From NCBI GenBank assembly GCA_905236865.1, contig CAJOQX010000150.1, forward strand, positions 1 through 55,203: a DNA stretch of 55,203 bases. Direction: 5' to 3'. This document shows positions 1 to 55,189 of the stretch, in pieces (the stretch's first letter is position 1; the number at the start of each line of letters is the position of its first letter). The position numbers and the translations under genes were made by a program. Origin of the DNA: Candidatus Rifleibacteriota bacterium. Lineage in GTDB: Bacteria > Muiribacteriota > Ozemobacteria > Ozemobacterales > Ozemobacteraceae. Under the pieces are notes generated by a model, which was not told where the DNA came from, did not search any database, and was given only the letters and a program-made list of their open reading frames with translations.

Positions 1-186
1 ATTCAATAGGTGAAAAATTATTTATCAGGGCTCGGTGTGTAGAGAAGAGCTCACAGAGTTATGTTAGAGACATTCACGCCAATCTACGTTTAATGTTTTG
101 TTCATAATTTTTTAATAATAGTTTTAAATTTATTATTTTAGTTAGCCGATTAGTAAGTGAAGAGTATATGCTTTAGGAGGTTAACT

Positions 187-24630: not shown

Positions 24631-25113
24631 TTAGTTACCAGAAATATTCTGACAATGGTTTACTAAATCTGTGAAAGACATATTTGCTGTAATAGGCTTA
24701 CATTTAGCACTATCATTAACAGCAGGAGTTTTATCAGTTTCATTATTTTCATAACCAACATATACTTGATTATCTGTTTCATTAATAAATGGAATTAGAT
24801 ATCCAACAAGATATTCTTGAGTATGTCCAGCAATTTGCAAATTGAATGCTCTTGTAGCGGCAGGTGCATAAGTATCTATACTATTAGTTAATTTTTCAGA
24901 ATTTACAGTATTACCTTTTGAAACTTCGATAGAGATATATATATTAGCACCAGACAAAGCGTTCTGATAAGCAGAAAGGAAAGAAGCTTTCTTAGCTTCT
25001 TGAAGAGCTTCTTGTGAACCATTGAAGAAAGTTGGAGCTGCTGCTGCGGCTACGATTGCGAGAACTGCAACAACAAGTAAAAGTTCCATTAATGTAAAAC
25101 CTTTTTTATTCAT
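24631..25113 (-). CDS. pilA: Type IV pilin (probable major pilin)
   Basis: MNKKGFTLMELLLVVAVLAIVAAAAAP has a canonical class III signal, G/F cleavage site and Glu+5. The gene is 160 aa and monocistronic, with its own strong terminator. A C-terminal Cys pair (C...C) is present. Confidence 0.8.
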   Translation of the reverse strand: MNKKGFTLMELLLVVAVLAIVAAAAAPTFFNGSQEALQEAKKASFLSAYQNALSGANIYISIEVSKGNTVNSEKLTNSIDTYAPAATRAFNLQIAGHTQEYLVGYLIPFINETDNQVYVGYENNETDKTPAVNDSAKCKPITANMSFTDLVNHCQNISGN

Positions 25114-33885: not shown

Positions 33886-36800
33886 TTATATTTCTATTAA
33901 GTTGGCACTAGATAAAGATTGTATAAGATAAACTTTTGAAGGTTTTGATTTTCCTTTAAAAGATACTTCACCATATTCTTCTGTTTTTATATCGTTTTTA
34001 ATTAAATCATATATTGTTTCTGATATTATTCTTCTGTCTGATTCCAATTTTTCACCAAAAACAGCGATTCTTGCAGATACGTTAACGGGGTCGCCAATTA
34101 TGGTGAAGTCTCTTTTTTCACCAACACCTAAATATCCAGAAATAACTTGACCATAAGTGACTCCGACAGAAACTTTGAATGGAAGACTTTCATTGGTTTC
34201 AATTAAATAAGCAACTTTTGAAGCTATAATAGCAATTTCTTTTTCTAAAGAATTTTCAAGATGAAAAGCTACAAGCATTTTCTCACCAATAATTTTATCT
34301 ATATCTCCACCATAATCTAAGACAATCTTAGATATTATAGCTATTTGATTTTTAAGCTTTTGGAAAAGTTGAATTATAGGTGTATTATTCATAATTTTAT
34401 CAAAGTTAGGAATAGTAACATATAGAAGAACTGTATCTATTTTTTTACTGGCAGTATCATTAGATGTTGAAGTTCCAATTAATGCCGATTTTGAAATCAT
34501 ACGATTCATGAGTTGTTTTTCTTCTAAAGATTTCATCATTTGGTTAAATGATTGACATAATTTTCCAACTTCGTCTTCTCTTGTATAAATAGTTCTAAAT
34601 GAGTAGTCTTCTTTTTTTGCAGCTTTAACTCCTAAAATAAGTTGTTTTATAGGAGCAAGTAAATCGGCTATAACAATATAAGCAATAAAACAAATTAATA
34701 TAAAAGAAAATAATATTGCTAATCCGAATTTAGGCAATTTATTGAATGATTCGTTAAAAATAAATTTTTCTGAAGATAAAGCAAAATATATTTTATCATT
34801 GGAATAGTTCCCTCTTCTACATTCTAGAAAATGATTTCCAAAACAGTCAATCTGACTAGAAACAGGGATAAAACTTGAGTTTAACCAATAATAATTAGTT
34901 AGTAATCCATTTAAAATTTCTGATTTACCAATAAAATCAGAATAAATTAAATTATTACCAACTTCTTTATTTATTGAATGAAATAGAAAAATTTTATTAT
35001 CTAAAGAACCAGAAGATATATGTTGTTCAAGAGAATAATTTTGTTGATTTGTTTGATTACAAACATAAGACAATAAATCATTGTCATACTTAATTATAGA
35101 AAATAGAACATAATCAGGTTTGTCTTGATTTGGAACAGGTATTGATATAAAACTAATGTAAGTATAATTTAAGGTTACTGTTTGATTAGAATTAGGATAA
35201 TTAACTAAATCAATAGTTATTTCATCTCCAAAAGCGGAATTAAAAGTTTTTGACAACATGCGAAAAATTTCTTCTCGTTTATAATTTTTAGAATTGTAAT
35301 TGTCAGAGTTAGAATCATCAGAACTAAAGAAAATATATTTAATATAATCTGAAAAAATTCTACCAAAAAAATCTAAATTATAACCATTTGAATCATTTCC
35401 AGAAGCAACAAAGTCATTTTTTGCTACGAGTAGTAATTCCAAAATTTTGTGATAATCTTTATTGGCAGTTTTATTACTTTGATTATTTTGGTTTTCAACT
35501 TTTAAAAAACCATTCTTTGTAATATGTTGTAGATATTTAAACTGCCCTATTATGTCTCTTTGTTTAATTCTTAACATTATTCTTGGACTTTCACTTTTAA
35601 TATTAAGCCATAAATTATAAAATGGAAGATAATATAGCTCTTTTCTTTCTAATTCATCAATTCGTGTGTTCATTTCAAATAAAGTTTCAGATTTTTTTAT
35701 ATTATAATCCTCAATAACATAAAGAATAGAAAGAAAAAGAACTATTAAAATCGGCATAAAAGCTGATAATAAAATATCAAAACTTAATTTTAAAGAAATA
35801 GAAGATTCAAATAAATTCTTTTTTTTATTTGCAAAACAAAGTATTATAATAAAAAAGAAAGATAAAGATAAAGGAATTAGAACTTTAAATTTTTCATAAA
35901 TTAGATGCAAATAAAAAAGGTTCTTTTTTATTATAAAAACTTTCCATTTATTATAGGTATTATCATTATAAATTGTTGCTATTTCAGATATAAATCCAAA
36001 ATTATCAAGTATTTTTTTATTTTCAATATTACTTTTTATAAAATTGATTTCTTTTTGAGAACAACCATTAGAAAATACCCAGTCATCTCCTTTATTTAAA
36101 GCTAAAAAGATATCTTTTCCTGCATTAAAAGTTATAAATTTAGGAATATTGATTTTATCTTTAAGAGTAGTTATGTCAACAGGGAATCCACATAAAAAAT
36201 CATATCCTGAAACTTTCTTGTTATTGTTTACTTTATCTAGAAAAATCCGTAAAAAATTTCCGTCAAATATTGTGTTATTGGTTTGTTTAAAGGAATTAAA
36301 TGTTCTATCAGAAAAAACATCTTCAAAATTATTAAATTTATAGGGGAGTAGATTTCTTGAATAATAATTATAGTTTATTTTACAACAATAAAGAGGAATA
36401 GGGCAACCTAGCTTGTCGTATTCCTCTCGTATTGAATTAATTGCTTCTTCTATTTTTCCTTTTGAATCATTAAAATTTATTTTTTTTCTTATTTTTTCAG
36501 AAAAATCTAAGCATTGTATATTAAAAGCTGACTTTAAAGCTTCATCAGAATTAATCTGTTCAAATAATCTTGTACATTCTTTGATTGATTGGGATTTTAA
36601 ATTTTCAGAATAAGTTGAATAGATAAAATTGATTCCAAAACTAATTAAAAATATTACAGAAATAACAGCGATAAAATTTAATAAATATTGCCAAATTACG
36701 TTAAATTTTGTTACTGATTTCTGCAATAAGAAAACTTTTGTATTATTTGATTTATTTTGATTTGTTGTATTCTCTTTTTCTTTGTTATTAGAAAAGATAT

Positions 36801-39800
36801 TTAATGATTTAGATAGATTACTTAAGTTACCTATTTCTTCAACTGTGTATGCAGAGAATAAATCTGTATCTAATTTTTTAAATCCAATTCCATTTTCTGA
36901 CATTCTTTTTGAAATTAATTCATCAGTAACAAGAGGAAAACTTGGATTTTGAATTGACAATGCTTCAAGTTTAGCTGCCTTTTTTAAAGGTTCTCCTAAA
37001 ATAGCATAATCAAGTCTTGAATCTATACTTCCAACAGTACCAGAATACATTGTGCCATAAGATAACCCAACACCTATTTTATAAACAAATAATCCTTTTC
37101 TTTTTCTTTTTGCATTAACAAAGGCTAATTTTGTTATCATTCTACAGCTTGCTTTAAAAGCTCTATATGAAGCTTTTTCAAGATTATCTTTTTCAGGGAA
37201 AATAGCTTCTATTGCATCGCCTATGAATTTATATATTTGCCCTCCGTTTTCTGATATTATTTTAGCCATTTCTGCAAAGTGATTGTTGAGTAAATCTGTT
37301 ATAATCGTAGGGTCATATTTTTCTGTCATTCCTGTAAAATTACGTATGTCTGAAACTAAGGCTACTCCTTCAAAAGTTTCTGTGTCATTTAATAAACCAT
37401 TACTTTTTTTCTCTAATGCTACTATGGCTTGATCAGATAATAATTTTGAAATACGGTCTTTTTCTTTTAGACCATCAATCATATTTGAAAACTCATTGGA
37501 AAGGTTTCCAAATTCATTTTGTGGTATACTTTGTAGAGATATATTCAAATTACCTATAGCAACTTCATCTAAAGCTTTTTTTAATTCTGAAACAGGTTTG
37601 ACAAAAACATTTGCAGCTCTAATACTGCAAATATAGATAATAAATAATGAAATCAATATAAGTATAATAAAAAAGTATTTTCTAATAATAACATTAAAGG
37701 TTATATCAAATTTATCTACCCAACCTACAAAAACTGTGTTTGAAAAATTCAAAGAAGGTATAAAAACAACTAGATTATCATCTATAGAAAAAGTATCTGT
37801 CTTTTTTAAATAGAATGTTTGTTTTGCAAGATCTGGTAATTTGTTAAGAAATTCCTTCGTAGCATGTCTAGTTTTATCGCCGATAGTTTTTATATTTTGT
37901 CCATCAATTCTATATGCAATAAAATTTTGATTTTTATTTTTTGATGAATAATAATTAAAAGACTCTTTTATAATTCTATCATCAAGGTATTTATCTTCCC
38001 ATATAATTAATAATATATACTTTATTTTTCCATCTATTTTAATTAAATCAAAAAGTTGATAGATGCACAAAGAACCTTTTTTTACCGAAACAGGGACAGA
38101 AAAATTTTGTTGAAATTCATCTTTTAGTGATACTTCTGACATTGAGTCATAACATTTATTAACCGTTTTTCCTATTTCTATTTCTATTTCCTCTAATTCA
38201 TCTATTTCTTTCTCAAATTTAATATTGGGAGTTTCACTAGCTATCTTTTCTCTTAATATATCAATCTGAGTTACAAGTAAAGCATTTATAATAATTTCAG
38301 TATTGGTTGAAGATATAATTTTTTTATTGGTTTTTTTAAAATTTGAATCTATATTTTCAATTCTTTTCTCATTTAAATTTATATTAGTTTTTATTGATTT
38401 TGAATATCTTCCTTCAACAAGGGCGCCTCTACCATTTTCATCTAAAATTTTAACTCCTAATATCGGCAAAGATTTCTTAGAATCCTCTGATTCAAATTTA
38501 TCTAAAACATATCTAGCAGCCGATTCGTCTTCAATACCTTTTTCTTTTATTAAATCTATAAGTTTTTTTTCATTTAAAACTTTTGTAAAAGTAGCTTTAT
38601 ATTCTCTTACGTTATTCATTTTTTTTGCATCAGTAGATTTTAAATTTGTCTGAATTTCAGATAATTCTTTGTTTATGGAAGTTTTTTGATACTCCAAAAT
38701 ATAGGCATAAGCAGTTGCTAATAAAATAGATAAAGGTAAAAAAGATGCAAGCATATAAGAAATAGCAAATCTAATTTTTAAAGAAAATTTAAAATTGAAA
38801 TCAAAAAATATATAACAATATATAATTATAAATAATATATAAACGTCTATAAAATCAAAAAGAATAAGCCATTTTGGTAAGGTTTTTGTTTTTATTGATT
38901 TAACTAAAACAACAGCGATACGAAAAGACCCTCTGGCTAGAAATTGATAAGCCGTATAATTTCCTAATTCATCTCCTTGTGGAAGTGAATTTTCAAGCCA
39001 TTTATTTGCAACTTGTAAATCATGGATAGTTATTTTACTAGCCCATTCAGAGAAAAGTGTAGATTTATCTAAAGGGTATTGAAGAATTGGTTTTCCAAAA
39101 ATATTACTATTTCCGTCACCTTTATATAATGGAATAAAAGCTCCTAGACCCTTAAATCTTTTTTTTAAATTTTTAAGAGCAAGTCGTTCCGCTATTTCTT
39201 GATTAGTTTTATCTACTTTATAAAGAAAAATGACACCAAAAGTACCTTTACCTTCTATAAATACATAATCCCAAATAAACCAAGAAGCTTTATGGACACC
39301 GTTAGTATGAGTTGGTAATCCACGCATTGCCTTAGCAATAGACTCAGGGGAAGTAAATTTACCAATTAACTGTTTAACAAAATTTTTATTAACATTTAAA
39401 TCATCTAAGCTTGTATAATTATAATAATTAATTTTATATAACTGTTCAAAAGCTTTACATATAGCAGTTTTCCCTATTAAATTTTTATTGTCATTCGTAA
39501 ATATTAGGTTCGTTTTCTTTGTTTGAGAATCAATTTTAAAAGTGTATAAAAAATAATCTTGTGGAAAAGGTTCTTCAAAAATTTTATCAGCAGATTTTTT
39601 TATATGTTTTACAATAAAAGATTTATCTTTATAGTTTAATTTAACATCATTTCTAAAAGTATCAAAAAATTTACTAAAAAGAGATGAAATCTGATTTTTA
39701 AAATCACCTTCTGAAGCTAAGGTTTCAGCTTCATGCATAGCTTTTTTTTCTTGTTCTTTTATTTCAAAATATTCATTTATTTTTGAAGTGTAGTAATAAC

Positions 39801-39879
39801 TAATATTGAATGCTAAAATAGGTATAATAAATAGTAGAATTGTTAAGATAATATTATATTTTTTAGATGTATTAGTCAT
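33886..39879 (-). CDS. Giant multi-pass membrane receptor with two HAMP plus class III adenylate/guanylate cyclase modules (paralogue 1 of 3; 1997 aa)
   Basis: One uninterrupted ORF with about 8 hydrophobic helices bounding four extracytoplasmic regions of 300-400 aa. CHD1: VALVSDIRNFTG...GGQIYKFIGDAIEAIF...RLDYAILGEPLKKAAKLE. CHD2: VLLYVTIPNFD...GGDIDKIIGEKMLVAF...RDFTIIGDPVNVSARI...GEVSFKGKSKPSKVY. It starts 21 nt after the paralogue 2 stop. Confidence 0.85.
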   Translation of the reverse strand: MTNTSKKYNIILTILLFIIPILAFNISYYYTSKINEYFEIKEQEKKAMHEAETLASEGDFKNQISSLFSKFFDTFRNDVKLNYKDKSFIVKHIKKSADKIFEEPFPQDYFLYTFKIDSQTKKTNLIFTNDNKNLIGKTAICKAFEQLYKINYYNYTSLDDLNVNKNFVKQLIGKFTSPESIAKAMRGLPTHTNGVHKASWFIWDYVFIEGKGTFGVIFLYKVDKTNQEIAERLALKNLKKRFKGLGAFIPLYKGDGNSNIFGKPILQYPLDKSTLFSEWASKITIHDLQVANKWLENSLPQGDELGNYTAYQFLARGSFRIAVVLVKSIKTKTLPKWLILFDFIDVYILFIIIYCYIFFDFNFKFSLKIRFAISYMLASFLPLSILLATAYAYILEYQKTSINKELSEIQTNLKSTDAKKMNNVREYKATFTKVLNEKKLIDLIKEKGIEDESAARYVLDKFESEDSKKSLPILGVKILDENGRGALVEGRYSKSIKTNINLNEKRIENIDSNFKKTNKKIISSTNTEIIINALLVTQIDILREKIASETPNIKFEKEIDELEEIEIEIGKTVNKCYDSMSEVSLKDEFQQNFSVPVSVKKGSLCIYQLFDLIKIDGKIKYILLIIWEDKYLDDRIIKESFNYYSSKNKNQNFIAYRIDGQNIKTIGDKTRHATKEFLNKLPDLAKQTFYLKKTDTFSIDDNLVVFIPSLNFSNTVFVGWVDKFDITFNVIIRKYFFIILILISLFIIYICSIRAANVFVKPVSELKKALDEVAIGNLNISLQSIPQNEFGNLSNEFSNMIDGLKEKDRISKLLSDQAIVALEKKSNGLLNDTETFEGVALVSDIRNFTGMTEKYDPTIITDLLNNHFAEMAKIISENGGQIYKFIGDAIEAIFPEKDNLEKASYRAFKASCRMITKLAFVNAKRKRKGLFVYKIGVGLSYGTMYSGTVGSIDSRLDYAILGEPLKKAAKLEALSIQNPSFPLVTDELISKRMSENGIGFKKLDTDLFSAYTVEEIGNLSNLSKSLNIFSNNKEKENTTNQNKSNNTKVFLLQKSVTKFNVIWQYLLNFIAVISVIFLISFGINFIYSTYSENLKSQSIKECTRLFEQINSDEALKSAFNIQCLDFSEKIRKKINFNDSKGKIEEAINSIREEYDKLGCPIPLYCCKINYNYYSRNLLPYKFNNFEDVFSDRTFNSFKQTNNTIFDGNFLRIFLDKVNNNKKVSGYDFLCGFPVDITTLKDKINIPKFITFNAGKDIFLALNKGDDWVFSNGCSQKEINFIKSNIENKKILDNFGFISEIATIYNDNTYNKWKVFIIKKNLFYLHLIYEKFKVLIPLSLSFFFIIILCFANKKKNLFESSISLKLSFDILLSAFMPILIVLFLSILYVIEDYNIKKSETLFEMNTRIDELERKELYYLPFYNLWLNIKSESPRIMLRIKQRDIIGQFKYLQHITKNGFLKVENQNNQSNKTANKDYHKILELLLVAKNDFVASGNDSNGYNLDFFGRIFSDYIKYIFFSSDDSNSDNYNSKNYKREEIFRMLSKTFNSAFGDEITIDLVNYPNSNQTVTLNYTYISFISIPVPNQDKPDYVLFSIIKYDNDLLSYVCNQTNQQNYSLEQHISSGSLDNKIFLFHSINKEVGNNLIYSDFIGKSEILNGLLTNYYWLNSSFIPVSSQIDCFGNHFLECRRGNYSNDKIYFALSSEKFIFNESFNKLPKFGLAILFSFILICFIAYIVIADLLAPIKQLILGVKAAKKEDYSFRTIYTREDEVGKLCQSFNQMMKSLEEKQLMNRMISKSALIGTSTSNDTASKKIDTVLLYVTIPNFDKIMNNTPIIQLFQKLKNQIAIISKIVLDYGGDIDKIIGEKMLVAFHLENSLEKEIAIIASKVAYLIETNESLPFKVSVGVTYGQVISGYLGVGEKRDFTIIGDPVNVSARIAVFGEKLESDRRIISETIYDLIKNDIKTEEYGEVSFKGKSKPSKVYLIQSLSSANLIEI
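33930..34660 (-). other. Paralogue 1: HAMP-2 plus cyclase homology domain 2 (metal-Asp-negative, Lys/Thr/Asn/Arg-positive)
   Basis: DTVLLYVTIPNFD is encoded at about 34399-34437 and DFTIIGDPVNVSARI at 34066-34110. The HAMP domain starts at APIKQL (about 34660). Confidence 0.75.
36905..37605 (-). other. Paralogue 1: HAMP-1 plus cyclase homology domain 1 (metal-Asp-positive, Asn/Arg-negative)
   Basis: VSDIRNFTG is encoded at 37330-37356, KFIGDAIEAI at 37201-37233, and DYAILGEPLKKAAKLEA at 36961-37011. The HAMP domain starts at VKPVSEL (about 37602). Confidence 0.75.
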
Positions 39880-39900
39880 TTTTTTTCTATATCATTTTAA

Positions 39901-42900
39901 CTAACAAAAACGGTAAATTTTCATAGGGAGCGACTTACCTTTTAATTGAAATTCACCATATTCTTTAGTTTTAACAATATCATGAACTAAATTGTTTAAA
40001 TTTTCAGAAATTAAGCATCTTTCAGACGCTAAGTTTTCAGCAATGCTTTCTATTCTTGCTGTAACATTGACAGCATCACCTATTACAGTAAAATCTCGTT
40101 TATTTCCAATTCCAAGAAATCCATTGATTACTTCTCCATAGTTTAAACCTAGAGCAACAGGGAAAGTAATTCTTTTGGTTGTTTCATTATCTATTATTTT
40201 TTTTGCAACTTTGCAAGCTGATGACAAAGCCTGTTTTTTATTATTCTTTTTGATGGGGAAAACAACAAGCATTTTTTCTCCAATAATTTTGTCTATTTCT
40301 CCCCCATCTTTCATAATTAACTCAGCAATTATAGCAGTCTGCTTCTTTAGAGAATCAAAAACAAACTCTTTGCTGTATCTTGCTAAATATTTAGTAAAAT
40401 TAGGAATTCCAATATATAGGAAAATAGAATTTGATTTTGTCGAATTTTGAAAATCTTCACTAAGAGTTACTGCTCTTGCTGTTTTAGAAAGCATTCTAGA
40501 CATCATTCGCTTTTCGTCAAGACCTTTTATCATTTCGTCAAAAGCGAAGCACAAAGACCCTAATTCATCGGTTCTATCAGAATCAATTCTAAAAGAAAAG
40601 TTCTCTTTTTTTACTTCTTTTATGCCTTCTAGCAAAATATTTATTGGATAAATAATATCATTGGTGATATTTCTTGTAGTTTCAACTATAAGAAGTATAG
40701 ATATTGCTATAAGAATATAAAACAAATAAGTCATTTTTTTTATTTTATCATAAATGTTATTTTCAGGGTATGTAAAAATTAACATTGAGTAATAATGTAA
40801 ATGTGAAGGCATTGCTTCAATAAGATAAGATTTGTTGTTTATTGTTAATTTATCTGATATGGGAAGATTTGATATAGATAGCCAAGATCCATAATTACCA
40901 AAAGAAATTCTGACGTTATTATCTTTACATTCATCAATTTTACCATAATTAAGATTATCAATTGGATAAATAGCATAATCTGAAGATATTTCTTTTGCTA
41001 AACGCAACAAATAATCATAAGTATTAAATTTTATTATCCATGTTAAATATGATTCAGCATTTTTATAATCTGGAGCAGGGGAAATATAAAGGCCTAATCT
41101 GCCTATACCAATATTTAAAATTATAGGAATTTTTATTGCATTTGATAGTTTAACAAATACGTCAGCTCCAAAATATGATTTTATTGTTTGCAATCCCATT
41201 TCTTTATAAATATCATTAGCTATAAGTTCTCCATTAATTGAATTTTCTTGACGATTAAAAAGAGATTTAAATATTTTGTTGAGCAATGTTCCAATTTTCT
41301 TTTTTTGGTCAGAATTTTTATTGTCCAAATAACTAACTGATTGTTTTATTGAATTGTTAGTTGTTTCTTCTTTTTTCTTAGACAAATTTAAATTTAAATC
41401 CCAACTATTTTTTCCTGTAATTGAAATATCAGAAATAGAATAATTTGTAATTAAATTTTCTTCTTCTGTATAGTGATTAGTTTCGTTTTCCCATTTACAA
41501 ATAATTCGTTCTAATTCTTTACTTTCTTTTATATCTTTTATATCTTTTATATCTTCTATATCTTTTTTATCTTTATTTATTTTTAATTCTTTAGAGTATT
41601 TATTTAATATTATACTATTTTCAATAAGTTTTTTGTTATCGTTCTTAACCTTTATTAAATTCCAAACAAGTGGAACCCCAAAATCAATTTTATCTTCAAA
41701 ATCTTTACTAAAGCTTTGTATTTTATCTCGTTCTTGAGCAACTTTAACAAAATAAAATTCATTTACAAATAATTTGAATACAAATGACATTGTTAAGAAA
41801 GGAACTACAGCCACAATAAGCAAAGCAAGCCATAATTTTGAAGCAATTGTTTTGTTAAATATTGATTTCCCTTTTATTATTCCAATTAAAATATATAACA
41901 TAAAAATAGATATGACAAAAACGATAAAATTAGTTAGAGCTAATGGAATATAATTATTTTTATAGAATTTTGCTAAGTAAATATTGTAAGACTGATTATT
42001 AAATTCTATTTCATCTTTTTTGATATATTTTTGATTGTCATCATCGTTGTTGACAGAAGCCAAAATATGATTTGGATTTTTTAAATAATTAGGAACATTT
42101 TTAGAATAATGCCATTCTTCTTTTTCTTTTTTAGTTTTGTGTAGGAAAACTAATCTTTCATTTTTAGAATAAAGATTTAAAAGCATTTGCAATGATTCAG
42201 AGGCAGATTTTGTAGGCATTAACAAAACTAAATAGCCAATTAATTCTTCTGTATTATTATAAAAATCTAGTATATAAATATAATGTTTTTCGTTGTGAAA
42301 ATTAACTTCATAAGCAGTATTTATCTTTTCATTTTTTAATAAAGTTATTGGTAATTTTTCACCAAAAACTTCTTTGCTAATATCTCCGTATTTTCCAGCC
42401 ATATATTCTTTGTATGGCAACTGGAATTGGTCTATTTCAGATTTATCTAATTTATTTTTTTCAGAAATACTATCTAGAATATTTAATGCTATTGCAACTC
42501 TATAACTAGAACATATTTTTTCTATTTCCTTTTCATTAAAACCAGTGTTTGACAATGTGTCTAATTTTATATTATCAACAAAATGAGTATTATTAATATC
42601 TAATTTATTTATAGAATTATCAACTTTTATAAATATTTTGCTTAGATTTAATTCTTTAAAAATACTATTGGAATTATAATAATTATTGATACTGTTATTG
42701 ATTAATTCATTTATTTTTGTTTTATTCTCTGAATCAGAAATATCAGAATTTAAAGCATAAGCAAAATCTCTACAAAGTGAATCGAAAGCATTTATTCCAA
42801 AATCTTTTTGCTTTAATTGTTCCAAAACCCTTTGTAAATCGGTTTCTATTAATTGTTTTTGATTCTCTATAGACAGACTGTTTAATAAATAAAATCCACC

Positions 42901-45900: not shown

Positions 45901-46425
45901 TTCTGATTCATAGTTATTATAATTATAATTTGAATTGGCAATATTAACTTTAACAAGGTATTCAAAAGTTATTTCTAATGCTTTTTTATTCTTGATATTT
46001 TGGTTATTATTAAAGATTATTTTTGGCTTTCCATGATTTTCTTTATTAATCTTTGGAAAATGAAATACTAAAAGTTCATGTTTTGGAAATGGGGCTTTAA
46101 ATATTTTTTCTGCCTTTTTTGAAACGAATTCTAATAATCTTTTTCTTTGTTTTTCTTGAGGATATGTTTTAACCAAGGATTTAAGATTATTATAAAAATC
46201 TTTTGCTAATTGCTCAAAACAATTTTCAAAATTCGCTTTGTAAGCTAAATCTTCGACTTCTTGTTCGGATTGTGCAATTCTTTTTTGTTCTTCCCAATGT
46301 GTATCTATGTAGTTAAGAAAATACCAGCCAAAATTCAATAGAATCAAAGGTAAAAGCCATAGAACAATAGGTAAATATCTGTTTTGGCTTAAAAATTTAC
46401 TTTTTGTTGCTATATCTTTAATCAT
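39901..46425 (-). CDS. Giant multi-pass membrane receptor with two HAMP plus class III cyclase modules (paralogue 2 of 3; 2174 aa)
   Basis: Collinear with paralogues 1 and 3. CHD1: FLVSDIRNFTG...GGRIYKFIGDAVEAVF...RLDYAILGDTLKKAEKLE. CHD2: IFLYIGIPNFT...GGEIDKIIGEKMLVVF...RDFTVIGDAVNVTARIE...GEFQLKGKSLPMKIY. It starts 23 nt after the paralogue 3 stop. Confidence 0.85.
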   Translation of the reverse strand: MIKDIATKSKFLSQNRYLPIVLWLLPLILLNFGWYFLNYIDTHWEEQKRIAQSEQEVEDLAYKANFENCFEQLAKDFYNNLKSLVKTYPQEKQRKRLLEFVSKKAEKIFKAPFPKHELLVFHFPKINKENHGKPKIIFNNNQNIKNKKALEITFEYLVKVNIANSNYNYNNYESEKEKGAIIAKNVFGGECDPEVIAETQCGKASYAFYNLESNRIYWNYFENQSNANESNGDIYGFLLIVNNSDELEKDSKLITLKDFRDSQKNESEKKYCCFIPLFPGYSGVVTTKEFAIMPEFNELKKKWSPKSIKDLCDWQLNLKPDKRKNNIIGNYQAFFHIAPQQSHATVLLIPKKERNKIPTWLISFDFLIILIIIILLLRGIFWGIWPQMSLKTRFITTYFLASCIPLGLLAIISYGYISEYTLSFSFNAQTKLRNYINKFDLQKIKYQEKYRTAFHKIKQDSLFLESFKKLDERNIIIDNKLDEIINNLEKKKENELISLKKFEKIKKEETKNIIENDFLPVAKTVIDIFLKKWNKKELPFLTVTILDEKGNYITNLSGNLSYTYCKIDNQENELNYNNEAEKKKLIKDKALNDNSLNSISSSLLETLQNKIKNHNKPRRWKENEEENTNKSKKIEALTDFTKIGYEAALGDKSTSLSDDLEKRAGLIVNRQIGDRYINHIHEYIQVDGVPRFILYLFWDTNELDLDTYISTLDSLYLDNKTRECFFSAYEKREKTSQEIKPWPESKKAQSAKYETYKRHEEEYKQISLKLVNTAAIRKKAVSYNDNQLTAVVVPSRQYEGLYIIGGIFNNVLYNNIFWKVTIFIIVILLALIILFACFNYLSKILLIPISNLKESLDNVKRGNLDIEIKNNSKDEFGDICREFSEMTKELSERNRLATLLSDHAVEALNKKNEFTNSDVETFNGTFLVSDIRNFTGMCELYSPDEITNLLNEHFAMMTKIFSENGGRIYKFIGDAVEAVFADNDDFTRSSAERAFTASVEILNSLNTINQQRKEKGLFDYKIGIGLSYGEMSSGPIGSIDTRLDYAILGDTLKKAEKLESYSKFNPEFPIVVDKDFINVFKKFFVGIDFLSFKNENGLEGFKITDNGLNIFLTEKKDDLVRAEKVSQNKTVLNNNKVKNNVINSYKISKKEEAFALNQKLLSGLFFIILLSALLAGGFYLLNSLSIENQKQLIETDLQRVLEQLKQKDFGINAFDSLCRDFAYALNSDISDSENKTKINELINNSINNYYNSNSIFKELNLSKIFIKVDNSINKLDINNTHFVDNIKLDTLSNTGFNEKEIEKICSSYRVAIALNILDSISEKNKLDKSEIDQFQLPYKEYMAGKYGDISKEVFGEKLPITLLKNEKINTAYEVNFHNEKHYIYILDFYNNTEELIGYLVLLMPTKSASESLQMLLNLYSKNERLVFLHKTKKEKEEWHYSKNVPNYLKNPNHILASVNNDDDNQKYIKKDEIEFNNQSYNIYLAKFYKNNYIPLALTNFIVFVISIFMLYILIGIIKGKSIFNKTIASKLWLALLIVAVVPFLTMSFVFKLFVNEFYFVKVAQERDKIQSFSKDFEDKIDFGVPLVWNLIKVKNDNKKLIENSIILNKYSKELKINKDKKDIEDIKDIKDIKESKELERIICKWENETNHYTEEENLITNYSISDISITGKNSWDLNLNLSKKKEETTNNSIKQSVSYLDNKNSDQKKKIGTLLNKIFKSLFNRQENSINGELIANDIYKEMGLQTIKSYFGADVFVKLSNAIKIPIILNIGIGRLGLYISPAPDYKNAESYLTWIIKFNTYDYLLRLAKEISSDYAIYPIDNLNYGKIDECKDNNVRISFGNYGSWLSISNLPISDKLTINNKSYLIEAMPSHLHYYSMLIFTYPENNIYDKIKKMTYLFYILIAISILLIVETTRNITNDIIYPINILLEGIKEVKKENFSFRIDSDRTDELGSLCFAFDEMIKGLDEKRMMSRMLSKTARAVTLSEDFQNSTKSNSIFLYIGIPNFTKYLARYSKEFVFDSLKKQTAIIAELIMKDGGEIDKIIGEKMLVVFPIKKNNKKQALSSACKVAKKIIDNETTKRITFPVALGLNYGEVINGFLGIGNKRDFTVIGDAVNVTARIESIAENLASERCLISENLNNLVHDIVKTKEYGEFQLKGKSLPMKIYRFC
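39904..40660 (-). other. Paralogue 2: HAMP-2 plus CHD2
   Basis: SIFLYIGIPNFTKY is encoded at about 40395-40440 and DFTVIGDAVNVTARI at 40051-40095. The HAMP domain starts at IIYPINILLEG (40623-40658). Confidence 0.75.
43190..43890 (-). other. Paralogue 2: HAMP-1 plus CHD1
   Basis: VSDIRNFTG is encoded at about 43618-43646. The domain ends near NPEFPIVVDKD (43201-43233). The HAMP domain starts at IPISNLKES (about 43888). Confidence 0.75.
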
Positions 46426-46448
46426 AACCTTATGTTCTACTAATTTAA

Positions 46449-49400
46449 CTAAAGTAATTGATAAACTTTCATTGGTTTTGATTTCCCTTTAAGTTCAACT
46501 TCTCCATAATTATTAGTTTTAAAAGCATTGTTAATTAAATTAAAAAATGACTCTGAAATCAAACATCTATCTTTTTCCAATTTTTCAGCAAGATTTTCCA
46601 ATCTAGCTGTAATATTAACAGCATCTCCGATAACAGTGAAATCTCTTTTATTCCCAATTCCCAAAAATCCGTTAATCACATTACCAAAATTTATACCTAT
46701 AGCTATAGAAAAAGGAAGTTTGTCTGTGTTTTCTATTTCAATTAGACGTTTTGCTGCCATACAAGCAGTTTTTGCTACTAGCATTTCGTCTTTTTCTTTT
46801 TTTATTGGGAAGACAGCTAATATTCTTTCACCTATTATTTTATCTATTTCTCCGCCTTCTTCAATTATGATTTTAAAAATAGTCACGGTTTGTTTTCTTA
46901 GTTTTTCAAATATTTCTCTGTCTTTCATACTTCCATTATATGAGGAAATATTAGGTATACCAATATAAAGCATAACAGATTCAGACATATTAGATGAAGT
47001 TCCATCTCTTAAAATAAGTCTTTTTGCAGTATTAGACATCATTTTACTCATAGTTCTCTTTTCTTCAAGCCCTTTTACCATTTTATCAAAAGAAGAACAA
47101 ACAGCTCCAAGCTCATCTTTTCTATCAGAATTAATTCTATAAGCAAAATTTTCTTTATTAACTTCCCTGATACCATAGATTAAACTTTTAATAGGATTAA
47201 TAATATCGTTAGCAATGTTCCTTGTTGTAGCAATAATAATTATTAATGAAATTGCAAGTAAGACATAAAAGACAACAGAGAAGAGCGTTAGTTCTTTAGC
47301 TAAATCTTCCATTGGAAATGTAACTATGGTTAAAGAATTTTGATTATCTAAAGAACTTCTTCCTTCAACATAATATGAAAATTTATTGTCTAATTTACAA
47401 TAATCTGAAATTGGTAAATTGGTAGTAGCAATCCAAAAAGCATATTGTCCTAAAGGAATGCGCCAATAGTTGTTGTTTCTTTTATATATTTCTCCATATT
47501 TATTTTTTTCTATGAAATAAATTGAATATTTTGTGTTTATATTTTTTGAAAGATTAGAAAGATAATTAATGCAGTCAAAATCGATTACCCATATTATTAG
47601 AGTTTCTGGATTTTCTTCATTTGATAATAGAGAAAACATTAAACCCATTCTGTTGTTACCATAGTCAAAATAAATCGGCATATTAATGCCATTAACCATT
47701 TTTAAGAAAACTTCATCACCTAATACATCAACATTAATTCTATTTTTTTGTTTTATTTCATTATTTTCATCAAAATTATTATTATTCCTACAAAAGATAT
47801 ATTCAGAAAAATCTTTTAATATATAATTCAGTTTTTTATTTATTTTGTTATCTGAATTAATAATTCGGCTATCTTTTTCATCTAAACATATATTCCAACC
47901 ATTTTTGTCAAAAACGAAAATATTGTTTATTCTGAAATTTACAGGTTCTGTAGTGTTTATTTCCCAAGGTTTTCTTTCGTTTGCCCATAAAAGAATTAAG
48001 TTATGTATATTGTTTAATGCTTCAGATCTAGAATCTTCGGAAACTTCTTTAGAATTTATTGCTTTTATTAGGTCTTTAAGTTCTTCTGATTTATTTTTAT
48101 TATTAACATAGTTCCATATTAATGGAGTATAAAATTTGTCTTTTTTTTCAAACACGTCTGAAGAACGCAACATATCCATTTTACAAACAGAGCTTTTTAT
48201 AGAATGAAATTCATTTCTAAATAAACCAAAGACAAATGAAACAGCAATAACAGGAATTACGGCAACAACCAGTAAAGTCAACCATAATTTAGCCGAAATT
48301 GAACGATTTATACGAGATGTGCCTTTTGAAATTTTATATAAACTAATAAAAATAAAGATAATTATTATAGACACGCAAATTAAAGCATTTGTCGGATTGC
48401 CTTCGTTTAATTTGCATAATTTTGTTATATATAGTTCGTAAGGTTTGCCAGAAATATATTTTTCTCCACGGCAAGTTACACCAAGTATTTTATTTAAATA
48501 ATCGTTACCGATGTATTTTATATCATTTGCGTCAATAGTTGAGTTTTTGGTGGATTTCAGTATGTTATACCTAGCTAAATTCGGAATATTATCTGAAAAA
48601 TACCATTCGTTTGTTTCTTTATTTTTTAAGGAAACCCAACCTTCATTTTTTGAATAAGCACTCAATAATATTGGGATAGAGTCTCTAACTTGATTGGCTG
48701 GCATTGCAACAATAAAATAACCAATAAGTTTATTGCTATTATTTTTGAAATAATCTATCCAGTATATAAAATACTTTTTCCCTTTATAAAAACAATCTAA
48801 AGAATTATTTTTTGCATTATTCTTAAAAACATTTAATGTAAGCTTATTACCAAAAACATTAACAGAAGGTTCTCCATACTTTTCTTCTATGTATTTTTTT
48901 GAATCATTTTTAAACGAAATATAGTCTGATTCGCCTAAATAAAGTTTTTTAGATATTTTATCTATAGAATCTAAAGCTGTTATTATTTTAAAACTATTAA
49001 CAATGTTGTCTGTATCATTTTCAGAAAATCCTTTGTTCGCAATAGGTTTTAAAGCTATTTTATCAATGAAAGACTTATCGATGTTGTTTATTTCTCCAAA
49101 AGAATCAACTTTTATAAAAATAGAGTTAATTTCTGTATTTAAAAGACTTTTATCTGATATAACAATATCATTTATATAATTACTAATATTAATTTCGTTA
49201 AATTCTTTTTCTGTAGATTCATCTATTTTTTTCTGTAAAGATAAAGCGATTTGTCTAGCTTTTATATCAAAAGTTGTTTTTCCAGAATCATCACTAAGAA
49301 TTTGCTGTAAAAATCTATTGTTTTCAGTCGATAATGAAATTTTTTCTATATTATTGGCATTAGTGAAAACGAAATAGATACCAGAAATCATTATAATTGC

Positions 49401-52400
49401 AAGAATACAAACAAATGTTAGACCTGGAATAAATTTTCTTTTAAAAGAAAATTTCTCTTCTATTTCAAAAGTTTCAATGACATTTTTTTCGTGATTAGCT
49501 TTCTGAGAAGAATCGGTATTATCAATGTAATTGTTTTTGTCTAGTTCCTTTGTTTTATTAAGGAACAAATCAATGCCTTCATTATCTACTTTAAAACCTT
49601 CTATTGTGCCTTTTTGGTCTAATTCTGTAAATTTAATTTCGGGAAATATTTGGCTGAAAATATCTATAAATTTTTTGTCTACTACTAGTGGAAATTCTGG
49701 ATTGTGAATAGAATTGCTTTCTAATTTAGAAGCTTTTTCCAATACATCTCCTATAATTGCATAATCTAATCTGGTTTCTATGTTTCCAACAGTTCCTGAA
49801 GACATATTTCCATAGCAAAGTCCTATGCCAATTTTATAATTAAATAACCCATTATTTGTTCTTTCTGTATTAATTTCCTTCAAGCAATTAAACATTTCAA
49901 TAGCTGTTTTAAATGCTCTTTCAACAGAACTTCTGCCTAAATTATCGTTATCTGCAAAAACAACTTCAATAGCATCGCCTATATATTTATAAATTCTTCC
50001 GCCATTAGAAGATATGATTTTTGTCATTTTCGCAAAATGATTGTTTAGCAATTCTGTAATCTGGTCTGGATTATATGTTTCACACATTCCTGTGAAATTT
50101 CTTATATCTGAAACTAAAGCAGTTCCATAAAAAGTTTCTACATTTGAATAATCACTACTTATTTCATTTTTACTTAAAGCTTCTATAGCATGGTCTGAAA
50201 TTAATGTTGCAAGTTGGCTCCGCTCATATAGTTCTTTGGTCATATCGCTAAATTCGTGACACATCATGCCAAATTCATCTTTACTTTGACTTTTTATTTC
50301 TATATTGAAATTTCCATCTGAAATTTTGTCTAATAGTATTTTCAATCTTGTGATTGGTTTTAAAAATATTATTGAAGAATAGTATTCGCAGGAAATAAAA
50401 ATCATTAATGCTAGTATAATTACAGAAATACATATCCAAAATCTTTTAAAAACATCTAGATTTAAATTGTGATAAAAAACACCACCAACAATGATAGTAT
50501 CTTTGAATTTCTTTAAAGGAACAGCGACAATAAACATATTTTTATTCCTATTAGAAACGCTACTTTTTCTAAAATAGGCTTGTTTTATCAAATTAATACT
50601 AGAATCTTCAAATTCTTGTTTATGGCGTTCTCCTTCTACTGCCCATGGCTTAATACCTTGTGAATTAACTTTATATGCTGCAAAAGTAAAACTAGATTCA
50701 TTTATTCCGAAAAATCTCTCAGTGTCTTTATATGATTTCTCATCTAAATCATTTTCGTCAACATATAATAATAGTAAATAATCTTTATCCTTCAAAAGAA
50801 TGTTTTTTGTAAAGACAATTAAATTTTTATTGCCATATAATTTGTCTACAACATTATTGTCGTTTGAATGGTAAAAGTATGGTGATATCTTGTTACCAAG
50901 ATTAGCAAGACAATTTCCATTGTTGTCGTTTATAACAAAAGATTTTATGGGTAAAGAACGGCTTTCATTGTTTATTAAATTTAAAACAATAGAAAAAATG
51001 TTTAAAGCCTCATGCGATAAATTAGTAGAATCATGATTTAATGTTAAATCTAGTTTTTGTAAAGAATTAATTACAGAAGAATTTTTCTCTACTTCATCGA
51101 GAATATTTCTGTAATCATTTTGCAACTGCATTTTATGCTTATCAAATTCAGAAATACAAATTTTAAGCTTTGTTTGATATTTAGCTATTGAAGTATACTG
51201 GTATTCGTAAATATAGCCATAAGAAGCTATTATTAACAAACCTAAAGGTAGGCATGAAGCGAGAAAATATGTTGTTAAGAATCTAACTTTTAAGGAAGTG
51301 TGTATCCATTTTTTTAAGACAAAACCACGAAATAATAAAACTATTATAATAATAAAAACAAATACATCTAAAACTATTAACCAAATAGGAAAATTATTTT
51401 GAACTTTTGGAATAAATAATGCGGCAACATTGGTTTGATTAGGGTCGATATGAAAATAAGCATTATACTCATCTGAAAAATTATGATATTTTATACTGTT
51501 TATTTCTTTTTTTTGCCATTGAGACAATTCGTTAATATCTTTAGGAATTAAATTTTCTATTTTTTGAAATAATTCTGTGTTTTTAACTAATTCTTCACTA
51601 GCTGTAATGCCTTCATATCCTGAAAACAAAGGAATAAAAGCAGCGAATCTTTTTATATTATTATTTTTTTGATTTTCTTGAAACTCTTTAATGGCTATTT
51701 TTCGCCCTGATTCTTCTGTTTGTTTATTGTTGTCTACAAATATAAAATAGCCAAAAATATCTCCTGTTTCTTCTCTATTAAAATAATCCCATATAAAAAA
51801 ACTAGGTTTTTTATTGTAGGTTGAAAAAGATGTTTTCCCTCTTTGGCTTCTTGCAAAAATAAAAGATTCAGAGTTGTTTCCAAAAATATTGCCAGCTAGT
51901 TTTTCGTAAGCTTTTTTACTATCAGGTGAAAGATTATTCTCGTTATTTATTTTTACAAAATATTCAAAAGAAGCATTCAATGCGTCTTTATTATTTAATA
52001 TTTCATTGTTGGAATATATTATTTCTGTCTTATTTGTTTTTGAGTCAATTTTAAAGACAATCAAATCATGTTGCGGAAAAGGACTTCTAAATAAACTATC
52101 TGAACGATTTTTTATATAAGGAATCAAAGCGTTCTGTTGCTCTAGCCCATGAAAAAGACTGGTGTCTGACTTCAATAAATCACAGAATCTATTTGAAATA
52201 GTTAAAAGACAGTAAGAAAAATCAGACTTTGCCGATAAAAGTTCAATTTCTTGATTAGCGTTTTCTATTTGTTCTTGTTTCTGCCAAAAACTATCTATAG
52301 AAACAAAAAAAATCCATCCAATATTTATAAGAAGTAAAGGGAATAACCAAAGTACAATTGGAGTAACTTTATTTTGTTTTGTTTTGTTAATAGTCTGTTT

Positions 52401-52418
52401 TTCTTCACTTTGAGGCAT
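46449..52418 (-). CDS. Giant multi-pass membrane receptor with two HAMP plus class III cyclase modules (paralogue 3 of 3; 1989 aa)
   Basis: Collinear with paralogues 1 and 2. CHD1: ALVSDIRNFTG...GGRIYKYIGDAIEVVF...RLDYAIIGDVLEKASKLE. CHD2: VMLYIGIPNIS...GGEIDKIIGERILAVF...RDFTVIGDAVNITARLE...GEVELKGKSKPMKVY. Confidence 0.85.
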   Translation of the reverse strand: MPQSEEKQTINKTKQNKVTPIVLWLFPLLLINIGWIFFVSIDSFWQKQEQIENANQEIELLSAKSDFSYCLLTISNRFCDLLKSDTSLFHGLEQQNALIPYIKNRSDSLFRSPFPQHDLIVFKIDSKTNKTEIIYSNNEILNNKDALNASFEYFVKINNENNLSPDSKKAYEKLAGNIFGNNSESFIFARSQRGKTSFSTYNKKPSFFIWDYFNREETGDIFGYFIFVDNNKQTEESGRKIAIKEFQENQKNNNIKRFAAFIPLFSGYEGITASEELVKNTELFQKIENLIPKDINELSQWQKKEINSIKYHNFSDEYNAYFHIDPNQTNVAALFIPKVQNNFPIWLIVLDVFVFIIIIVLLFRGFVLKKWIHTSLKVRFLTTYFLASCLPLGLLIIASYGYIYEYQYTSIAKYQTKLKICISEFDKHKMQLQNDYRNILDEVEKNSSVINSLQKLDLTLNHDSTNLSHEALNIFSIVLNLINNESRSLPIKSFVINDNNGNCLANLGNKISPYFYHSNDNNVVDKLYGNKNLIVFTKNILLKDKDYLLLLYVDENDLDEKSYKDTERFFGINESSFTFAAYKVNSQGIKPWAVEGERHKQEFEDSSINLIKQAYFRKSSVSNRNKNMFIVAVPLKKFKDTIIVGGVFYHNLNLDVFKRFWICISVIILALMIFISCEYYSSIIFLKPITRLKILLDKISDGNFNIEIKSQSKDEFGMMCHEFSDMTKELYERSQLATLISDHAIEALSKNEISSDYSNVETFYGTALVSDIRNFTGMCETYNPDQITELLNNHFAKMTKIISSNGGRIYKYIGDAIEVVFADNDNLGRSSVERAFKTAIEMFNCLKEINTERTNNGLFNYKIGIGLCYGNMSSGTVGNIETRLDYAIIGDVLEKASKLESNSIHNPEFPLVVDKKFIDIFSQIFPEIKFTELDQKGTIEGFKVDNEGIDLFLNKTKELDKNNYIDNTDSSQKANHEKNVIETFEIEEKFSFKRKFIPGLTFVCILAIIMISGIYFVFTNANNIEKISLSTENNRFLQQILSDDSGKTTFDIKARQIALSLQKKIDESTEKEFNEINISNYINDIVISDKSLLNTEINSIFIKVDSFGEINNIDKSFIDKIALKPIANKGFSENDTDNIVNSFKIITALDSIDKISKKLYLGESDYISFKNDSKKYIEEKYGEPSVNVFGNKLTLNVFKNNAKNNSLDCFYKGKKYFIYWIDYFKNNSNKLIGYFIVAMPANQVRDSIPILLSAYSKNEGWVSLKNKETNEWYFSDNIPNLARYNILKSTKNSTIDANDIKYIGNDYLNKILGVTCRGEKYISGKPYELYITKLCKLNEGNPTNALICVSIIIIFIFISLYKISKGTSRINRSISAKLWLTLLVVAVIPVIAVSFVFGLFRNEFHSIKSSVCKMDMLRSSDVFEKKDKFYTPLIWNYVNNKNKSEELKDLIKAINSKEVSEDSRSEALNNIHNLILLWANERKPWEINTTEPVNFRINNIFVFDKNGWNICLDEKDSRIINSDNKINKKLNYILKDFSEYIFCRNNNNFDENNEIKQKNRINVDVLGDEVFLKMVNGINMPIYFDYGNNRMGLMFSLLSNEENPETLIIWVIDFDCINYLSNLSKNINTKYSIYFIEKNKYGEIYKRNNNYWRIPLGQYAFWIATTNLPISDYCKLDNKFSYYVEGRSSLDNQNSLTIVTFPMEDLAKELTLFSVVFYVLLAISLIIIIATTRNIANDIINPIKSLIYGIREVNKENFAYRINSDRKDELGAVCSSFDKMVKGLEEKRTMSKMMSNTAKRLILRDGTSSNMSESVMLYIGIPNISSYNGSMKDREIFEKLRKQTVTIFKIIIEEGGEIDKIIGERILAVFPIKKEKDEMLVAKTACMAAKRLIEIENTDKLPFSIAIGINFGNVINGFLGIGNKRDFTVIGDAVNITARLENLAEKLEKDRCLISESFFNLINNAFKTNNYGEVELKGKSKPMKVYQLL
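46452..47206 (-). other. Paralogue 3: HAMP-2 plus CHD2
   Basis: MLYIGIPNISSY is encoded at about 46950-46985 and DFTVIGDAVNITARL at 46599-46643. The HAMP domain starts at IINPIKSLIYG (47162-47206). Confidence 0.75.
49660..50370 (-). other. Paralogue 3: HAMP-1 plus CHD1
   Basis: VSDIRNFTG is encoded at about 50088-50116. The domain ends near NPEFPLVVDKK (about 49681-49705). The HAMP domain starts at LKPITRLK (50343-50366). Confidence 0.75.

Positions 52419-55116: not shown

Positions 55117-55189
<73 letters not shown>

Follow-up and report, generated by a model that had tools for sequence, protein, structure and literature searches.

Mammalian transmembrane adenylyl cyclases (tmACs) are class IIIa enzymes with the order 6TM-C1-6TM-C2 (TM, transmembrane segment), in which C1 gives the metal-binding Asp residues, C2 gives the substrate and transition-state residues and one site is degenerate. 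Two different partners among the cyclase homology domains (CHDs) also form one active site in the soluble guanylyl cyclase (sGC) alpha/beta and in the fungal RGC/NeoR. In mycobacteria, Rv3645 and Rv1318c/Rv1319c/Rv1320c are class IIIb cyclases of about 500 amino acids (aa) with the order 6TM-HAMP-CHD, which have a single complete CHD, act as homodimers and are without large extracytoplasmic domains (ECDs); the three tandem paralogues of M. tuberculosis are a precedent for cyclase arrays. Cyclases of Chloroflexus that resemble the soluble adenylyl cyclase (sAC, ADCY10) are reportedly soluble themselves and contain two catalytic domains. Activation of Chloroflexus cyclases by bicarbonate was described by Kobayashi et al. 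(2004). According to the prevailing view, bacterial class III cyclases are homodimers and the fused pseudo-heterodimer has a single origin in early eukaryotes (Schultz 2022). In that review, no class III cyclase in the form of a fused dimer is said to be known from bacteria, the tmAC fusion is placed in an early eukaryote, and the question is raised what is gained by fusing the dimer instead of leaving monomers and dimers in equilibrium (Schultz 2022). Here, we analysed a stretch of 55,203 nucleotides (nt) from Candidatus Rifleibacteriota bacterium (contig CAJOQX010000150.1, positions 1 to 55,203; this whole stretch is called the window), which contains three tandem genes, named C, B and A in the order of transcription. 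With a probability of roughly 0.7, each gene encodes a single-chain pseudo-heterodimeric receptor adenylyl cyclase with one active site.

Catalytic residues of the two cyclase domains

Two stretches matching Guanylate_cyc (PF00211) were found in all three proteins (scores of 87.6–102.6 bits, cut-off 21.9; E-values for the whole proteins between 1e-24 and 2.6e-29), a check that had been proposed in the first-pass annotation of the window. The same annotation had described two complete HAMP plus cyclase outputs per protein, which has to be corrected, since neither CHD has the full catalytic set and the two CHDs are complementary. The residue register was obtained from a MAFFT alignment of the six CHDs, from HMMER/PDB alignments to CyaB (3r5g) and bPAC (5mbg) and from the family columns. 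In CHD1, both metal-binding Asp and the Lys are kept (motifs LVSDIRNFT and IYKFIGDA), and Thr is replaced by Ala, Asn by Lys or Glu, and Arg by Lys. In CHD2, the Lys, Thr, Asn and Arg are kept, the last three within the motif RDFTVIGDAVNVTARIE, and the first metal Asp is replaced by Gly or Thr and the second by Glu. In HMMER local alignments, CHD1 fell on the N-terminal half of CyaB with the metal residues and CHD2 on the C-terminal half with Asn and Arg. The positions of the individual residues are listed in Table 1.

Conservation of this split was followed in a close-homologue set of 38 sequences, made up of A, B and C plus the 35 database sequences closest to them, 36 of which have a complete CHD2. 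All 38 have D, K and D in CHD1 with Ala at the Thr position. K, N and R are present in every complete CHD2 (36/36) and the first Asp in none; Thr was found in 37 sequences, one more sequence being truncated. The same residue split was seen in about 90 double-CHD open reading frames (ORFs) from 59 loci and in the 50%-identity cluster representatives, and CHD1 (D, D) and CHD2 (K, T, N, R) have to be taken together to obtain the full class III catalytic set.

A Thr in place of Asp at the substrate position is the hallmark of class IIIb, and Lys together with this Thr occurs in all complete CHD2. The closest solved relatives by sequence matches to the PDB were CyaB, bPAC, CyaC and sAC, which we take to be class IIIb cyclases as well. 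Since Lys and Thr occupy the substrate positions, ATP is the predicted substrate, and the product of this class IIIb-like enzyme would be cAMP.

Because the two CHDs are individually incomplete but complementary, one composite output per protein is expected rather than two. The reciprocal losses are invariant across proteins that diverge to 26–30% identity, which argues against random decay, and a head-to-tail pairing of CHD1 with CHD2 is the simplest explanation. Such a pairing would create one competent active site, to which CHD1 would give the two metal-binding Asp and CHD2 the substrate-binding Lys/Thr and the transition-state Asn/Arg; the second, symmetry-related site would be degenerate. 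It appears highly improbable that the proteins are catalytically dead pseudo-enzymes or scaffolds in which the degenerate residues reflect the decay of duplicated cyclase domains. The incomplete set of either CHD alone, the interruption of gene A in a near-identical strain (1542 + 395 aa) and a frameshifted copy at locus L004 would fit such a decay; decay is random, however, whereas the losses are exactly reciprocal, the six residues of one site are essentially invariant in about 90 proteins and no other part of the proteins is conserved as well as the CHDs.

Table 1. Coordinates of the array, of its domains and of related features (window positions unless a locus is named; minus strand marked by (-)).
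Feature	Position	Description	Basis
Gene C	46449..52418 (-)	1989 aa, first in array	ORF, Pfam, hydropathy
C-B gap	46426..46448 (-)	23 nt, AAGG just before ATG of B	
Gene B	39901..46425 (-)	2174 aa; same architecture as C; longer ECD2 (407 aa)	
B-A gap	39880..39900 (-)	21 nt	
Gene A	33886..39879 (-)	1997 aa, last in array; same architecture; most divergent paralogue	
C first sensor region	50442..52301 (-)	ECD1 aa 40-344, TM2/3 hairpin, ECD2 aa 399-659	
C HAMP1	50214..50384 (-)	directly after TM4	Pfam HAMP
C CHD1 ('C1-like' half-site)	49599..50138 (-)	D771, K811, D815; then A887, E894, K898	
C second sensor region	47286..49364 (-)	ECD3 aa 1019-1344, TM6/7 hairpin, ECD4 aa 1401-1711	
C HAMP2	47058..47228 (-)	directly after TM8	Pfam HAMP, best stretch aa 1736-1786
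C CHD2 ('C2-like' half-site)	46452..46982 (-)	G1820, K1860, E1864; then T1928, N1935, R1939	
Dead-site pair of protein C	~49986-49988; ~46827-46829	K811; E1864	
B CHD1	43129..43668 (-)	D930, K970, D974; then A1046, K1053, K1057	
B CHD2	39904..40431 (-)	G2006, K2046, E2050; then T2113, N2120, R2124	
A CHD1	36853..37380 (-)	D844, K884, D888; then A959, K966, K970	
A CHD2	33919..34437 (-)	T1822, K1862, E1866; then T1926, N1933, R1937	
Split pairs	L031:18460-24188; L062:6001-14918	CHD1-type + CHD2-type halves, ATGA stop/start overlaps	
dCache-HAMP-GAF-GGDEF genes	L060:15975-18089; L007:23223-25328; L003:21341-23458; also L007:26352-28514		

Receptor architecture and proposed mechanism

Hydropathy analysis gave 8 TM segments and four large loops of 244–407 aa in each protein, in agreement with the roughly 12 extracytoplasmic domains counted before for the three proteins together. 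The N-terminal half runs through TM1, ECD1, the TM2/3 hairpin, ECD2, TM4, HAMP1 and CHD1 to a linker of 59–64 aa, and the C-terminal half through TM5, ECD3, the TM6/7 hairpin, ECD4, TM8 and HAMP2 to CHD2, which extends up to the C-terminus. In the N-terminal half, ECD1 has a length of about 300 aa and ECD2 one of 260–400 aa. Both HAMPs stand directly behind a TM helix, HAMP1 after TM4 and HAMP2 after TM8. HAMP (PF00672) was detected with whole-protein scores of 41.7–51.2 bits against a cut-off of 25 bits, with two stretches each in B and C; in A, HAMP2 was above the threshold and HAMP1 reached 20.8 bits, aligned to profile positions 3–52 of 53. The two HAMP and two CHD annotated for each protein were thus recovered, with HAMP1 of A below the threshold. 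NCBIfam contained no model for these proteins, and only the TM-HAMP likeness to histidine kinases and methyl-accepting chemotaxis proteins (MCPs) was recorded, far below the cut-offs.

The two sensor regions of protein C were modelled with AlphaFold2 (residues 30–670 and 1010–1720) from a 36-sequence family alignment, with pLDDT 83 and pTM 0.70 for the first region and pLDDT 83 and pTM 0.79 for the second. In the models, a long stalk helix precedes two PAS-like alpha/beta units in each ECD. Foldseek searches against the PDB matched the first region to Tlp3, vpHK1S-Z8, TlpQ and KinD (probability ~1.0, E-values down to 1.5e-4, target TM-score 0.39–0.45) and the second to mmHK1S-Z3, 8w7p, PscC and Mlp37 (entries including 3lib and 6mni; E-values of 0.007–0.1).

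The two halves of each chain were compared by hhalign profiles, which gave E = 4e-5 over 172 collinear columns for ECD1 versus ECD3, E = 1.8e-14 for HAMP1 versus HAMP2 and E = 9.5e-16 for CHD1 versus CHD2; the similarity of ECD2 and ECD4 was not significant (E = 0.11). The HAMP, CHD and ECD1/ECD3 matches point to a duplication of the whole module within each protein, and each protein would be made of two fused copies, now diverged, of a receptor cyclase with four TM segments, two sensors, a HAMP and a CHD. A single-module relative with a complete catalytic set, the candidate homodimeric ancestor, was not found among 128 sensor-bearing clusters. Among A, B and C, the CHDs are 46–64% identical and the ECDs 16–33%. 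Paralogues that retained their output while their ligand specificity diversified would be expected to look like this, and the array is probably a set of cyclases that each respond to other ligands.

From sequence and predicted structure, the basis of all functional statements made here, we infer the intramolecular pairing, the pairing of HAMP1 with HAMP2, the product, the ligands and the co-transcription. In the proposed mechanism, ligands at up to four different ECDs would act on TM4-HAMP1 and TM8-HAMP2, and the two HAMPs would pair as one asymmetric bundle that sets the geometry of the CHD1-CHD2 dimer. The three paralogues would have the same kept output under strongly diverged sensors and would probably be transcribed together. 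A single transcript of C, B and A is plausible, since the gaps between the genes are short, the site scan found no terminator-like site within the 21- and 23-nt gaps and arrays are kept in the relatives.

Alternatively, CHD1 of one chain could pair with CHD2 of another, which would give two active sites and perhaps mix A, B and C, as had been suggested in the first-pass annotation. HAMP domains and dCache receptors are normally dimers, the split two-gene forms described below show that the halves can associate non-covalently, and with CHDs of 46–64% identity among the paralogues a cross-pairing is sterically conceivable. However, fusion holds a 1:1 stoichiometry and a high local concentration, by which pairing inside the chain is favoured, as in tmACs and sAC, and the fused intact ORF persists in very divergent lineages, with a second chain not required by the sequence. 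We therefore regard pairing between chains as unlikely and retain the single-chain pseudo-heterodimer as the preferred reading.

Several observations weigh against this preferred reading or parts of it. The residues themselves fit intramolecular and intermolecular CHD1-CHD2 pairing alike. For the receptor part, the isolated ECDs gave no dCache_1 (PF02743) match at E ≤ 1, Pfam returning noise only, the second sensor region had no Foldseek match below E = 0.001, and the TM-scores of the dCache matches are modest (0.39–0.46). Because of these modest scores and the missing Pfam match, the ECDs are called dCache-like by predicted fold only. For the transcription unit, no terminator-like site was found after gene A in the site scan, and promoter-like matches were not enriched (122 versus 133 expected from shuffled sequence). 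For the single active site, the residues of the dead site are conserved, namely the CHD1 Lys in 38/38 and the CHD2 Glu/Asp in 36/36 sequences, and this 'degenerate' site may therefore be functional; the degenerate positions next to these residues drift. In sAC, bicarbonate is presumably bound via the Lys of C1 that is equivalent to the CHD1 Lys. By analogy with the forskolin site of tmACs and the bicarbonate site of sAC, the conserved Lys and acidic residue could form an allosteric pocket.

Family distribution, tandem arrays and split genes

The ORF sizes (1997, 2174 and 1989 aa for A, B and C), the gaps of 21 and 23 nt and the N-terminal motifs given in the first-pass annotation were all confirmed, and the proteins are tandem collinear paralogues as it had claimed (28–45% pairwise identity; B versus C 40%, A versus B or C 28–45%). 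With a GC content of about 25%, one in about 11 codons should be a stop, and a run of 1989 codons without any stop has an ln P of about -183, so the three ORFs are not due to chance. The ORFs had also been proposed for a check on chimerism. Full-length collinear homologues were found for each of them: P0006 for C (48% identity over 99% of C), P0032 for B (45% over 2184 columns) and L028 for A (43% over 2059 columns). They are therefore not chimeric. NCBI and ENA already contain all three protein sequences in identical form.

A word-indexed search of 5.8 billion proteins returned 35 relatives, nearly all of them metagenomic sequences, of which 33 are complete (1,925–2,170 aa) and two are shorter (1,149 and 1,748 aa). 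When only the sensor region was used as query, an exhaustive HMMER search yielded no more than 128 clusters from 1.84 billion cluster representatives. When one genome per GTDB species was scanned with a profile, 59 loci were obtained, several genomes having multiple loci; a scan with protein C alone as query gave no matches. The named carriers are nearly all Candidatus Riflebacteria/Rifleibacteriota, among them Ozemobacteraceae, Rifleibacterium amylolyticum, HGW and GWC2 metagenome-assembled genomes (MAGs) and MAGs from rumen, reindeer and goat. This is a small lineage-linked family found almost only in Riflebacteria.

The assignment of the carriers was also followed with GlmM. The window GlmM is 92% identical to proteins named as Riflebacteria, and all named GlmM relatives of at least 65% identity come from Riflebacteria/Ozemobacteraceae except three (two 'bacterium' MAGs and one Erysipelotrichia). 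Some family-carrying MAGs have other labels, namely 'Erysipelotrichia bacterium INTA.CYC.134' (L010 and L044, SABV01), 'Candidatus Avigastranaerophilus sp.' (L003 and L005) and 'Methylomirabilis' (L019). The Erysipelotrichia label is probably a binning or naming error, since its GlmM is 75% identical to that of the window, inside the Riflebacteria range. By its GlmM, the window thus belongs to a Riflebacteria MAG of the gut or rumen type.

Tandem arrays are the rule in the family, with pairs at about 20 loci, trios at L001 and L011 and a six-gene array of about 37 kb on contig ONIU01000002.1 of RUG334 (1971, 2129, 2167, 2019, 1997 and 1986 aa). In the arrays of relatives, C-type genes lead and A-type genes are at the distal end. 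The layout had been regarded as unusual for bacteria, which held; it is not a one-off, as the family is recurrent in Riflebacteria, with arrays of 2–6 genes and a split form.

The split form consists of paired CHD1-type and CHD2-type genes. At L031, a 951-aa CHD1-type gene (signature DKDTHQ) ends in GTATGA, the internal ATG of which starts a 959-aa CHD2-type gene (SKETNR), with a GGGAG motif just upstream of this start. L062 has two split pairs in tandem ([979|1001] and [977|1003] aa). About 18 more cluster representatives of 937–1,023 aa are CHD1-type halves. The paired split genes indicate that one CHD1 half works with one CHD2 half, and the same enzyme would thus occur in two forms, fused in one chain or as an obligate heterodimer encoded by two genes. 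In a rough neighbour-joining (NJ) tree of the N-modules, which is compatible with differing directions and numbers of fusion and fission events, one group of split halves stands at the midpoint root and another is nested among the fused forms. The three window genes sit together inside a fused clade of this tree, so the local triplication came after fusion.

The genuine two-gene version in some lineages, together with the MAG origin of the window contig, raises the question whether the giant ORFs could be assembly or annotation artefacts, for example two adjacent genes of about 1000 aa read through. We consider the chance of this negligible, since the frame is continuous through the 59–64-aa linker in all three genes and in dozens of independent assemblies from different projects, and the distinct ATGA junction of the split versions is absent from the window genes.

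A more far-reaching reading, to which we give slightly less than even odds, is that the Riflebacteria independently evolved the solution of the mammalian membrane cyclases in a series that is still visible, and that the HAMP1/HAMP2 bundle is a single-chain multi-input logic gate. The series would lead from ATGA-coupled pairs with reciprocal residue loss to the fused chain and then to arrays of up to six genes, and the gate would integrate up to four different dCache-type sensors into one catalytic site.

Interrupted copies were observed at two loci. A strain 99.9% identical to the window (L064:80-6073, ENA ERZ28573591 scaffold_14090) has gene A as 1542 + 395 aa with a gap between, which is due either to an assembly error or to pseudogenisation. 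At L004:9084-15466, a second interrupted copy consists of 1162 + 992 aa, the frames of which overlap inside ECD3.

The G+C content of the array is 25.5% versus 32.4% for the rest of the contig. This dip (-0.03 to -0.09) recurs in all AT-rich gut lineages and is gone in Riflebacteria of about 50% GC. Recent horizontal transfer was considered as its cause and rejected, because the dip tracks the lineage GC; the recurrence across AT-rich lineages argues for a composition of the family itself.

In the window, a gene for an RCC1-repeat protein (52515-54848 (-), 777 aa, repeats C-terminal) lies 96 nt upstream of the array on the same strand, and a convergent YhdP-like gene follows the array. The RCC1 protein had no NCBIfam match and was not found beside the arrays of related loci. 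With the flanking genes (RCC1-like, YhdP-like, RapZ, M20 peptidase, cNMP/GAF and PilT; cNMP, cyclic nucleotide monophosphate) as queries, tblastn gave 0 matches across all related loci, so the neighbourhood of the window array is not conserved with arrays elsewhere. In many Riflebacteria loci, a conserved protein of about 705 aa with the order dCache-HAMP-GAF-GGDEF follows the arrays, and behind it there is often a PLD-like protein (about 720 aa); no such dCache-HAMP-GAF-GGDEF gene flanks the window array. A GAF protein beside predicted cAMP-making genes hints at a cross-talk from cAMP to cyclic di-GMP (c-di-GMP).

A 328-aa cNMP-binding protein with a weak GAF_2 match is encoded at 21521-22507 (-), adjoining a PilT-like T2SSE ATPase (22522-23712 (-)) and near a pilin-like N_methyl protein (24631-25113 (-)). 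The cNMP-binding protein, about 11 kb away from the array, may act as an effector of cyclic nucleotides with a link to type IV pili. The window also contains a gene for an HDOD-domain protein (9960-11411 (+)), a gene for an 871-aa protein with four Big_5 Ig-like repeats (157-2772 (+)) and, at the very end of the contig, tRNA-Pro(TGG) (55117-55189 (+)).

Comparison with known cyclases and receptors

In literature searches on Riflebacteria cyclases, bacterial pseudo-heterodimers and two-cyclase-domain proteins, a description of this family was not found. Since soluble enzymes with two CHDs are reported from Chloroflexus, the novelty is limited to the membrane-bound, receptor-coupled form of a fused pseudo-heterodimer in bacteria. 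Because the enzyme occurs both fused and naturally split, the value of fusion becomes testable in bacteria. The receptor on each half opens the asymmetric regulation of a cyclase by two membrane halves to study, and the regulatory role of the membrane halves is debated for the mammalian tmACs. The family also stands for a large expansion of cAMP signalling that is specific to one lineage, an uncultivated rumen/gut phylum, with 12 sensor domains in the window alone.

The dCache receptors Tlp3, TlpQ, PctA-D, vpHK1S-Z8 and KinD resemble the Riflebacteria family in the predicted, dCache-like ECD fold and have the TM-sensor-TM-HAMP wiring in common with it. The Riflebacteria family differs from them in that two sensors are chained by a TM hairpin for each HAMP and that the output is a predicted cyclase instead of a kinase or an MCP. 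The mycobacterial cyclases described above have the same membrane-HAMP-CHD wiring. The split members L031 and L062 are resembled by sGC alpha/beta and RGC/NeoR, but these are eukaryotic guanylyl cyclases with unrelated sensors.

Two complementary CHDs in one chain with class IIIb-type residues are likewise found in sAC, and CHD1 of protein C matches the C1 domain of sAC (4clf and 4oya, E ~6e-7). The sAC-type enzymes are soluble, have no TM, HAMP or ECDs and possess a long C-terminal regulatory region, whereas the proteins of the Riflebacteria family have 8 TM segments and end at CHD2.

By predicted function, sAC and the tmACs are the nearest analogues. The mammalian tmACs (AC1-9) likewise are single chains in which two complementary CHDs are joined to two membrane domains. 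They have 2 × 6 TM segments with small loops and Asp at the substrate position; the Riflebacteria family has 2 × 4 TM segments, four large dCache-like ECDs, a HAMP before each CHD and the class IIIb Thr at this position. No mammalian tmAC chain was present among the PDB sequence matches at E ≤ 0.001. Judged from sequence, the Riflebacteria family is predicted to work like a tmAC but is a member of neither the tmAC nor the sAC group, and its origin is most likely independent of the mammalian tmACs. With it, the class III adenylyl cyclases gain a new architecture, which appears to have converged on the mammalian pseudo-heterodimer design.

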